Source: Rhodobacter sp.
GTDB lineage: Bacteria; Pseudomonadota; Alphaproteobacteria; Rhodobacterales; Rhodobacteraceae
DNA: 64,000 nucleotides
Direction: 5' to 3'
Assembly: GCA_031425795.1 (NCBI GenBank)
Contig: JANPJZ010000228.1
Span: forward strand, 18 to 64,017
In this document: positions 43,419-45,454 of the stretch, in pieces
Layout of the letters: each line of letters opens with the position of its first letter
How positions within the stretch are numbered: position 1 is the first letter of the stretch
The notes under the pieces: generated by a model
Told to the model about the DNA's origin: nothing
The model's database searches: none
What the model saw: the letters and a program-made list of their open reading frames with translations, nothing else
Translations under genes and position numbers: made by a program

Positions 43419-44221
43419 GATGGACCGTGATGTACAAGAAACCCGCCATACAATAGTGTGCTGAAGCCCAAGAGTCTACCGATGAAGTGCCAGCGAGCCG
43501 TGATGTGGAAGATACCCAGTTCGGAATAGTGTGTCGTGGGCGCAAAGAAAACCGTAGGAACTGAACGAGCCGATGACCAAGAGAGACCCCGACCAGGTAA
43601 GTGGACCCTCATGCCCAAGAAACCCGCAAGGCGCTAGTGTGTCGCAATGTACAAGTCAAACCCGTAGCGTAACAACGTGTCAATGCTGGTTAGAACCCCG
43701 TAAGCACCAAATGGGCCAATATGGGATAGAAAACCGAAGTACGCAAGTGAGCCCCAGTCGATGAGAAACCCGAAGTCGACAAGCGTGTCAATGGCTATTA
43801 GCAAACCTGTGGGATGTAACGAACCGTTACGGTCAAGAAATCCAGTGAGGCTGAGCGCGTCAAAACACTGGAGAAACCCGTTCTTCAGGATCGAACCGGA
43901 GCCGGCTAGAACCCCATACCCGATAAGTGGGCCGTCAATGCGAAGTACACCAGTGAAGGAAAGTGGACCATGGCGGAGAGGCACCCAATAGGACGAAGTG
44001 TGTCGATGGATAGGAGAAGACCAAAGGAGGTAACGAACCGGATCTCAATAGTACCCCAGCAGGAATGAGTGTGTCAGAGCCCCCGAGAAACCCAAGCGTC
44101 GAGAGCGGACCACGAACACCGAGTAACCCGTGGAGACTGAGTGAGCCAAGAACCGTCGCTGTGTCAGCGACAGCTAAGAAACCCGAATCGCCAGTAGACC
44201 CTACTGGCCTGAAAGCGAGAC
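43419..44221 (+). repeat. TIGR-type dual-repeat guide-RNA array: 20 units of about 36 nt plus one hairpin-expanded terminal unit
   Basis: Alternating edge repeat A(G/A)(T/C)GNN(C/T)C and loop repeat AG(A/T)AACCC separated by 10-nt variable segments; 721 nt over 20 units (16x36, 37, 38, 35, 35). Confidence 0.9.
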
Positions 44222-44224
44222 GAC

Positions 44225-45454
44225 ATGACTGATGAACTCAAACCTAAGCGCAAGTATACCAAGCGCGCCCGTGACGCAGACGGAAACCTGATTAAGCCAG
44301 CGAAGGCCCCGGCGGCAGCCAAGAAAGCCGCTGCCGTAAACCCGGACGACATCGCCAAAACGCAGGCCCTGAAGCCCGGGGAAACCTGGGTCGCCCCGAA
44401 GATCAAAGAGCCGGATGTTCGGCCGGCCATCGAGCTGTCGGAGGCTGACGTTGAGCTGGCGGACTCCACCGTGGAATCCAATGACGCCTACGAAGAGCCG
44501 AAGACGAAGCAGAAGAATCCGGTCATTGTACCACCGCCCGCAGAGGGCACCGAGGCCCGCTACCTGCAATCGCGAGAACTGCGAATGATGGTGCGCGGGA
44601 TGTACGATGTCCAAGGCCTCCGCATCCAGACGGGCAACCGGCTGGTGGGCCAGTACAAGGCTAAGTTAGGCCAGAGGCCGGGCGAGAAAGAGGACACGCT
44701 CGGTATCGAAAGTCAGGACATCCTGGCCGCGATCCGCCAGCAGTACGCGGTCATCGCGACCGCCCTGGCAGGCGGGGCCTACACGGTGTCGACGTTCAAG
44801 GCAGCGCCGCTCATCAGCAGCTACACCGAATACTGCCTCACCCGGCAGTACCTCCAGTTGCTGCAGACCGAGGTGGGCCATGCCAAGGCCATCGCGTCGC
44901 TGGTCGAAGAGTTCCCGATCTACAATGCGTTCTTCAAGGGCGTGACTGGCTGTGGTCCGATCCTCTCGGCAATCTGCATCGCAGAATTCGACCTCGACCG
45001 TGCACGCCACCCCTCCAGTTTCTGGGCCTACGCAGGCCTCGATGTCGGGCCGGATGGCCGGGGTCGCTCGAAACGGGCAGAGCACTTGGTGCCTGTCACG
45101 TACACCGACGCGAAGGGCGCCGAGCAGACGCGACAGTCGATCACCTACAACCCGTTTCTTAAAACGAAACTGGTCGGGGTGTTGGGCTCCAGCTTCATCA
45201 AACAGAACCCGGCGAAGTGCAAGTACCGCGCCATCTACGACAACTACAAACGACGGCTGGAGAACCGGCCGGACTGGTCGGAGGAATCGAAGGGCCATCG
45301 GCATGCCGCTGCGGTCCGATACGCGGTGAAAATGTTCGTGCTGGATCTATACCTGACGTGGTCACGGCTGGAGGGGCGTCCGACGTCCCAGCCGTATCAC
45401 GAAGCGAAGCTGGGCATATTCCATGGTGGAGTCGGCCCGGGGACGCACCAATAA
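44225..45454 (+). CDS. tasA: TasA-like Nop-domain RNA-guided protein (IS110/Nop5 related), no nuclease domain, N-terminal low-complexity extension
   Basis: Y..Q.LRI..GNRL coiled coil; GCGPILSAICIAE..SSFWAYAGL; YNPFLKTKL; Y..YK.R..GHRH..A.RY.VKMF; no DEDD RuvC; 3 nt downstream of the array. Confidence 0.85.
   Translation: MTDELKPKRKYTKRARDADGNLIKPAKAPAAAKKAAAVNPDDIAKTQALKPGETWVAPKIKEPDVRPAIELSEADVELADSTVESNDAYEEPKTKQKNPVIVPPPAEGTEARYLQSRELRMMVRGMYDVQGLRIQTGNRLVGQYKAKLGQRPGEKEDTLGIESQDILAAIRQQYAVIATALAGGAYTVSTFKAAPLISSYTEYCLTRQYLQLLQTEVGHAKAIASLVEEFPIYNAFFKGVTGCGPILSAICIAEFDLDRARHPSSFWAYAGLDVGPDGRGRSKRAEHLVPVTYTDAKGAEQTRQSITYNPFLKTKLVGVLGSSFIKQNPAKCKYRAIYDNYKRRLENRPDWSEESKGHRHAAAVRYAVKMFVLDLYLTWSRLEGRPTSQPYHEAKLGIFHGGVGPGTHQ

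Follow-up and report, generated by a model that had tools for sequence, protein, structure and literature searches.

A probable dual-repeat TIGR-TasA system with strongly degenerate repeats in a tailed phage

TIGR-Tas systems have been described since 2025, and thousands of their arrays have been catalogued (bioRxiv 10.64898/2026.09.09.750476). Arrays of this family were found experimentally to be processed as RNAs, and the published TasA proteins bind 36-nucleotide (nt) tigRNAs and repress transcription under RNA guidance. The structure of TasR showed a processed tigRNA that spans from mid-edge to mid-edge and whose ends are joined by the box C/D pair and one further pair (PMC12045711), and SpTasH cuts its own precursor via Y289 and H296 (PMC13421893). 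The C-terminal Tyr/His processing loop is kept in dual-repeat Tas proteins and absent from stem-loop Tas proteins. Here, we analysed a stretch of 64 kb (64,000 nt) of contig JANPJZ010000228.1, referred to as the window, in which an array of 20 units on the + strand leads into a gene, tasA, encoding a protein with a Nop-type domain (43419–45454). We consider it very probable that this locus represents a dual-repeat TIGR-TasA system of a tailed phage. All sequence-level defining features of such systems were found, namely two alternating repeats of 8 nt plus a purine separated by spacers of about 9 nt, symmetric boxes (edges starting with A-(G/A) and ending with (C/T)-C-R, loops starting with A-G and ending with C-C-R), an extra edge pair with covariation that joins the tigRNA ends (the 6–3 pair described below), and an adjacent Tas gene with coiled-coil, Nop domain and Tyr/His processing loop. 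The same assignment had been proposed in an initial annotation; as the family was already described, the find is less novel than implied there.

The array and the adjacent Nop-domain protein

Within positions 43419–44224, sequence identity reached 0.429 at a lag of 36 nt, 0.40 at 72 nt and 0.38 at 108 nt, compared with a top value of 0.327 at any lag in 200 shuffles. Tandem Repeats Finder, run on positions 42500–46000, did not detect the array because one half of the unit varies and even the conserved half is degenerate; autocorrelation and an iterated weight-matrix parse were used in its place. The parse yielded 20 units, the first starting at 43419 and the last ending at 44139, with spacings of 36 nt (15 times), 35 nt (twice), 37 nt (once) and 38 nt (once). 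Each unit consists of an edge of the form A(G/A)(T/C)G-N-(G/A)(C/T)C plus a purine, the 9-nt spacer A, a loop resembling AGAAACCC plus a purine, and the 9-nt spacer B. The positions carrying at least 1.7 bits are A1, G4 and C8 of the edge and A19, G20, C25 and C26 of the loop. A purine follows directly after 18 of the 21 edges and 18 of the 20 loops; thus, the initial reading as 9+9+9+9 units of 36 nt with two 9-nt spacers holds, and it fits the published dual-repeat TIGR (PMC12045711). Thirty-eight of the 40 spacers are 9 nt long and two are 8 nt long, with unit 2 (37 nt) parsed with an extra base in its loop.

Other elements of that annotation could be confirmed as well. The three example units quoted in it were located at 43492, 43600 and 44068 exactly as written, the 20 guides are indeed distinct (all 20 spacer pairs differ), and the likeness of the repeat boundaries to C/D motifs is correct in the published sense, with AG as box D (UG in TasR) and CC-purine as box C (CCA in TasR).

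The array region (+ strand) is non-coding, with codon-usage scores between -0.75 and -0.98 bits per codon in all three frames of the + strand, compared with +0.2 to +0.5 bits per codon for the genes beside it. Its GC content is 54% vs 65% for the window, and it is rich in A (32%) and poor in T (15%). The independent Logan assembly of the same sequencing run was identical across 42531–55454. We found no second array or unit-like site on either strand of the window, where the best score outside the array was at most 13, compared with 17–29 inside. The only other strong lag-36 signal, peaking around 3117, was rejected as a second array. It is a proline-rich coding repeat unrelated to TIGR; the respective open reading frame (ORF; 2214–3419, + strand) encodes a proline-rich, low-complexity C-terminal tail that stems partly from a 36-nt DNA repeat (3239–3382).

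Among the spacers, units 1, 3 and 7 carry related versions of spacer A, TGATGTACA (43428–43436), TGATGTGGA (43501–43509) and CAATGTACA (43645–43653). Seven pairs of A spacers share at least six of nine positions, where 1.9–2.9 pairs were expected (P = 0.004 to 0.018), and the B spacers exhibit no comparable excess of similarity. Furthermore, position 3 of spacer A is a purine in 19 of the 20 units.

Beyond the last parsed unit, sequence reading and RNA folding delineate a degenerate array tail (44140–44224, + strand). It opens with a full edge, AGTGAGCCA (44140–44148), continues with irregular edge- and loop-like motifs and closes with a truncated edge, AGCGAGAC (44214–44221), 3 nt upstream of the tasA start codon at 44225, precisely where the initial annotation had let the array end. 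Two hairpins of 7–8 bp (44155–44171 and 44190–44208) are each centred on a repeat-like motif. The fold of this segment (-24.7 kcal/mol, z = -1.86) was not significantly better than that of shuffled sequences, and we claim no function for it. When the array lies upstream of tas, such a terminal edge is located in or beside the tas ribosome-binding site, as in AGCGAGAC-GAC-ATG here and AGCGAAC-ATG in locus L076; further loci with a truncated edge near this site are L029, L040, L050, L051 and L057, and in several relatives the Shine-Dalgarno sequence is AACGAGAG(G). Binding or cutting by TasA at the terminal edge could feed back on its own translation.

The gene tasA (44225–45454, + strand) encodes 409 amino acids (aa). 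Its core, a coiled-coil followed by a Nop-type RNA-binding domain (44561–45454), was delineated by NCBIfam, sequence matches to PDB entries and Foldseek. The protein matches the full NCBIfam model NF052498 TIGR_Tas_endo ('TIGR-Tas system RNA-guided endonuclease') over residues 119–381 with 118 bits, above the cut-off of 100. Sequence matches to solved structures comprised TaTasR (9mty, 5.5e-10) and SpTasH (21kl, 9vzx and others, 1.9e-08). An AlphaFold model computed with 34 relatives as input was confident at residues 110–396, and the top 11 Foldseek matches were all TasH or TasR chains (probability 1.00, target TM 0.58–0.77), followed by the bridge-RNA recombinases IS621 (E ~1e-3) and ISCro4 and then by Nop56/58 (E at least 0.28). 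Y391 (45395–45397) and H400 (45422–45424) align to Y289 and H296 of SpTasH; in the alignment of the 34 relatives, no exchange occurs at Y391, and at least 90% retain H400. In residues 1–112, which precede the Nop module and are predicted to be disordered, Pfam detected neither an HNH nor a RuvC nuclease domain. The protein is therefore assigned as TasA, as anticipated in the initial annotation, and the NCBI label 'endonuclease' would overstate it.

The family to which it belongs comprises 2109 clusters at 50% identity (E <=0.001). The nearest relatives are 285–296 aa long, with a top identity of 55% to the window protein. A 36-nt periodic array is located beside tas, upstream or downstream, in 77 of 80 viral loci from IMG/VR, and the repeats of these related loci are homologous to those in the window. 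Even if the repeats are too degenerate for repeat finders, sequence alone can suffice to recognise a TIGR-TasA system.

Pairing and possible exchange along the array

If the tigRNA has the same extent here as in the TasR structure, each edge i should complement, with its 3′ half, the 5′ half of edge i+1 and not its own 5′ half. This directionality is testable in the window because the edges of the array differ among themselves. Position 7 of edge i and position 2 of edge i+1 were paired at 19 of 20 junctions (13 C-G, 5 U-A, 1 U-G; 18 of them Watson-Crick), for which permutation gave a mean of 15.7 (P = 0.001). Likewise, position 6 of edge i and position 3 of edge i+1 were paired at 19 of 20 junctions (8 G-C, 6 A-U, 5 G-U), and tested jointly, the two pairs reached P = 0.0007. 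In contrast, 7–2 pairing within the same repeat (15/21) and in the opposite direction (15/20) stayed at the permutation level. The pair-counting tool returned 96.6% paired cells vs 88.4% in shuffled data (one of 500 shuffles was as high) and 20–55% when the partner was slid; the MAFFT alignment behind this count gaps unit 17, so that U-A is counted four times and one cell is gapped. A T at position 7 was followed by a base other than G at position 2 in six of seven cases and a C by a G in 13 of 13 (Fisher P = 0.0002). Six of the junction pairs are G-U pairs, which are valid on the + strand only; on the other strand they would be C-A mismatches, which identifies the + strand as the sense strand. 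Within the loop, the pair G20-C25 is invariant (20/20).

The same directionality was found beyond the window. Pooled over about 70 related arrays, 2061 of 2080 cells were paired with the next edge, compared with 2007 within the same repeat and 1995 with the previous edge; in seven of these arrays, directional pairing was individually significant. Edge types also covary between loci, position 2 with 7 and position 3 with 6, as seen in AACGAGTCA, AGCGAGCCA, AGTGAACCA and AATGAATCA. Since the junction pairs are the two ends of one processed tigRNA, the array is under selection for this end-pairing as + strand RNA, and the seemingly degenerate repeats are largely compensated variants. Covariation along the junctions thus provides sequence-only evidence both for a mature guide reaching from mid-edge to mid-edge and for the strand that is read. 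Moreover, the array can be regarded as a natural mutational scan, in which A1, G4, C8, A19, G20, C25, C26 and the two compensated pairs were retained; this suggests that these nucleotides and pairs constitute the minimal needs of a working tigRNA scaffold in this clade.

Related arrays also vary in length and in the kind of edges they contain. The arrays of the sister contigs L001–L004 differ by 72, 108 and 180 nt, and all six clean indels between sister arrays among loci L001–L085 comprised whole edge-to-edge units, none being loop-to-loop. The four contigs carrying the TasA relative P0004 possess a canonical array downstream of tas, with edge AACGAGTCA, loop AGACAACCA and 9-nt spacers; it runs over 26–36 units and has a rho-independent terminator behind it on the tas strand. 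In the window array, a guide cassette extends from the 3′ half of an edge to the 5′ half of the following one, and cassettes with matched ends recur (TGTC...AACG four times; GACC or AACC...AGTG six times). Whether the type of edge in a cassette goes along with the type of loop was assessed by eye; the trend was weak and was dropped. The mosaic of edges might record growth, loss and exchange of the array in tigRNA-sized cassettes that break and join at the RNA processing site, an interpretation that we put forward as tentative and rather doubtful, although the edge-to-edge indels of the sister arrays lend it some support. One possible route would be the copying of processed tigRNAs back into DNA, another the recombination between arrays of different edge types; alternatively, the mosaic could have arisen by mutation in situ followed by compensation. 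If true, the cassette mosaic would bear on spacer acquisition by TIGR systems, an acknowledged question of the field.

Possible mode of action and alternative explanations

In the dual-repeat TIGR-TasA reading, transcription of the + strand would cover about 43419 to 45454, and probably the upstream gene as well, and yield a precursor of 20 guides followed by the tasA message. A TasA dimer would recognise each unit by its box D (AG) and box C (CC-purine) nucleotides, contacting one edge and one loop repeat, and Y391 and H400 would cut the precursor mid-edge, presumably around the invariant G4. The resulting 36-nt tigRNA would have its ends held together by two pairs, in which positions 7 and 6 of one edge meet positions 2 and 3, respectively, of the next. 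It would lead the dimer to an 18-bp site, with spacer A pairing to 9 nt of one strand and spacer B to the adjacent 9 nt of the other. With no nuclease in TasA, such binding would not cut the DNA but block its transcription (or replication). RNA-guided DNA binding without cutting, i.e., repression, is the most likely function; for transcription, processing, dual-strand targeting and repression alike, this scheme draws on published work on relatives.

Several observations weigh against this interpretation. With a mean identity of 0.74 to their own consensus, the repeats rank lowest in uniformity among about 70 distinct related arrays, which could mean weakened binding. The best matches of the 20 guides within the 64 kb had 3–6 mismatches, the same as for 120 mispaired A/B controls. 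No terminator follows the array, which abuts the tasA start codon, unlike typical arrays, and TasA bears a tail of 112 aa. Furthermore, the phage is uncultured, its sequence was found in one run only, a DNA metagenome from freshwater sediment, and no RNA run holds it; repression was demonstrated for other TasA proteins (MbTasA) outside this clade.

With regard to the repeats, the initial annotation had stressed their extreme degeneracy. The ranking supports this, as identity in the other arrays ranges from 0.79 to 1.00, most of them exceeding 0.9; the array is not unique in this respect, because L072 (0.79) and L041 (0.81) come close. In the high-GC relatives L041, L071 and L047, arrays are likewise upstream or degenerate, so that the window is extreme, not alone.

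The search for targets covered both strands of the 64 kb outside the masked array, using the 18-bp layouts rc(A)+B and A+rc(B) (rc, reverse complement). The comparison of spacer 18-mers with this phage's own DNA, which the initial annotation had suggested, yielded nothing beyond the mispaired controls, and we rejected self-regulation of window genes by the guides, as the matches are indistinguishable from these controls. The targets would therefore lie outside the visible part of the phage, in the host, in competing elements or in the unseen 46 kb of the 110-kb contig. The authors who described the TIGR family note the problem of chance matches, with tens of matches expected per 18-mer in hundreds of gigabases. 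The GC content of the spacers is 50% vs 65% for the genome (window), and across the approximately 70 related arrays spacer GC lags behind genome GC with a slope of 0.43. Such a lag would be in line with targets richer in AT, for instance promoters, or with an energetic ceiling on the melting of 18 bp.

A different effector logic is unlikely in our view. According to this explanation, a factor of the host or phage (a nuclease, polymerase subunit or partition factor) would be brought in by the N-terminal tail, the outcome being exclusion of competing elements, aid to DNA bending or integration, or activation. The tail (residues 1–112; 44225–44560, + strand), delineated by alignments of relatives, codon usage and the model confidence score pLDDT, occupies the place of the nucleases of TasH and TasR. 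Its codon usage is of coding type in frame 0 in each third (+0.19, +0.55 and +0.08 bits per codon, with the other frames near -1), its GC content at third codon positions is 0.73, and a downstream start at M121 was rejected, as residues 1–120 are coding throughout by codon usage. Its charge is bipartite, basic at residues 1–62 and acidic at 63–92. Alignments of relatives start at query residue 114–128 nearly always, mostly near 115, and at 78–112 in a few cases; no homologue of the tail was found among 5.8 billion proteins, and residues 1–83 had no aligned representative among 1.84 billion clusters. The tail is thus a real, orphan part of the protein. It is translated by codon usage and unique, and a phage RNA polymerase gene lies 2 kb away, all of which would suit a recruitment function, as does the published discussion, which holds inter-element competition and integrase aid possible for TasA. 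Against this, the tail is probably disordered according to the structural model (pLDDT <50 for residues 1–13 and 26–103 and about 50–60 between) and is conserved in no relative, and may therefore be dispensable; most relatives, with their 285–296 aa, do without it, and no partner gene such as tasParB is located nearby. As an orphan module in this position, it is nonetheless a candidate for an effector or recruitment module.

We regard as quite improbable that the locus is a decaying relic, i.e., an array drifting to randomness without working guides beside a TasA that is inactive or has another role. Such decay would be in keeping with the low repeat identity among the related arrays, with the irregular lengths (two 8-nt spacers and two units with a longer loop), with the scrambled segment at 44140–44224 and with the empty target search of the 64 kb. 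Yet drift would break pairs, and 38 of the 40 junction cells are kept via compensatory changes; the seven box nucleotides show little or no variation, and tasA is an intact gene whose codon usage is of coding type and whose processing dyad is conserved.

An array of DNA-level iterons or a centromere-like array bound by protein is hardly credible. Iterons and partition sites, too, typically show short conserved motifs at regular intervals, and the sole run that holds the sequence is DNA. The covariation, however, is complementary, has a direction (from edge i to edge i+1 only) and allows G-T on the + strand only, base composition is strand-asymmetric as given above, the homologous arrays of relatives end in a terminator on the tas strand, and arrays of the family are experimentally processed as RNA. 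Finally, an IS110-family RNA-guided transposase with a non-coding bridge RNA region, to which a weak Pfam match (a 48-residue stretch of Transposase_20, 22.3 bits, the sole Pfam match of the 409-aa protein), the label 'transposase' of PHROG family 4285 and the Foldseek match to IS621 might point, is effectively refuted: the protein scores 23 bits with the NCBIfam model transpos_IS110 (cut-off 140), Pfam detects no DEDD_Tnp_IS110 or RuvC domain in it, its N-terminus is disordered, a tandem array of 20 units stands in place of a single two-loop bridge RNA, unit number varies among relatives at a fixed genomic place, and TasH and TasR match far better than IS621. Two further candidates were rejected. 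CRISPR-Cas has one repeat of about 25–36 nt, spacers of comparable length and cas genes close by, whereas the repeats here are of two kinds with 8–9 nt each and the neighbouring genes match nothing in Pfam or PADLOC. A box C/D small RNA (sRNA) or Nop5 small ribonucleoprotein (sRNP), marked by K-turn-forming C (RUGAUGA) and D (CUGA) boxes, was rejected because no snoRNA or sRNA family matched and Nop56/58 structures fit far worse than Tas.

Genomic setting and comparison with known systems

The array is preceded by a gene encoding 233 aa (42706–43407, + strand; gene call in L005, coding-type codon usage), which has no match in Pfam or PADLOC and whose stop codon is located 12 nt before the first unit. 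No sigma-70-like promoter was found on the + strand near the array, including the interval between this gene and the array. Given the gap of 12 nt and the lack of a separate promoter, the upstream gene is probably co-transcribed with the array; the negative promoter result itself says little, because the phage encodes its own polymerase. A terminator-like hairpin (42644–42666) lies upstream of the 233-aa gene. On the other side, 14 nt past the tasA stop codon, a perfect 10-bp hairpin formed by CCTCCGGTGG and CCACCGGAGG (45468–45493, + strand) has no U tract; the terminator scan did not call it, as a T run is missing. It may mark the end of the transcription unit, perhaps as a signal for the phage polymerase, or may act as an RNA-stabilising element.

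Genes for a large terminase, a head protease, a helicase and a protein resembling a tail sheath were found in the window, and the setting in a phage with its own RNA polymerase, pointed out in the initial annotation, was borne out. A single ORF of 2134 aa (47577–53981, - strand) fuses a beta-like and a beta′-like RNA polymerase (Pfam RNA_pol_Rpb2_6, Rpb1_2 and Rpb1_5), 2 kb from tasA and on the opposite strand. The neighbours of the TIGR locus have no relatives in Pfam, PADLOC or IMG/VR, and tasParB was not among them; they therefore provide no information on synteny. Two adjacent tRNAs were detected at 42482–42637, a tRNA-Pro (42482–42560, ARAGORN) and a second one at 42566–42637 (Rfam only, 49.6 bits). 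The Logan contig diverges from the window inside the tRNA-Pro (42483–42530), i.e., the assembly graph branches at the tRNA, which could reflect a 3′ half shared with a host tRNA, or an attachment site. In a DNA search against a phage database, only the tRNA matched. The Rfam scan of 42000–46000 returned the tRNAs and two chance-level matches far below the gathering scores, one of them inside the array (43755–43824).

Among known systems, IS110/IS621 and the archaeal box C/D sRNPs (Nop5) share with the window locus a Nop-type domain and two guide segments with C/D-like flanks. They differ from it by a DEDD/RuvC domain, a single bridge RNA, K-turn C/D boxes or a fibrillarin/L7Ae partner. SpTasH of Salicola phage CGphi29 (PDB 9vzx, 9w03, 21kl) and TaTasR (9mty) have the same fold of Nop domain and coiled-coil; their N-terminal HNH or RuvC nuclease cuts DNA, whereas the window protein has a disordered tail in this place and is predicted to bind only. 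MbTasA and dead TasR (Xu et al. 2026, bioRxiv 10.64898/2026.09.09.750476) are nuclease-free and exert tigRNA-guided, reversible repression; in comparison, the window locus is a dual-repeat system with a loop, known here from its sequence.

A described dual-repeat TIGR-TasA system, FpTIGR of Flavonifractor plautii (PMC12045711), is also phage-borne. It shares the 36-nt units, in which 9-nt spacers A and B follow the edge and the loop, respectively, a solo Tas protein that has a coiled-coil and a Nop domain and no nuclease, symmetric boxes D and C in both repeats, an A-rich loop interior and an extra covarying edge pair. Compared with the described dual-repeat TIGR-TasA systems, box D is AG and not UG and box C is CC-purine and not CCA in the window. 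In addition, its repeats vary within the array to the point that the box C/D pair itself can be either G-C or A-U. The array is placed upstream and continues up to the start codon of tasA without a terminator, and there is the 112-aa orphan tail in a genome of 65% GC.

The greatest likeness in sequence was found for the clade of 285–296-aa TasA proteins from marine and freshwater phages (P0002–P0120; L001–L085), with 49–55% identity over residues ~115–400. Edges of this clade are AACGAGTCA or AGCGAGCCA and loops AGACAACCA or AGAAACCCA, and the Tyr/His dyad is kept. Its arrays are located upstream or downstream of tas, many of them downstream with a rho-independent terminator at their end (L001). 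In contrast to the window, the repeats in this clade are near-perfect (0.79–1.00) and the proteins mostly have no N-terminal tail. These departures from described members are variations within the kind, and the NCBI model already recognises the protein.

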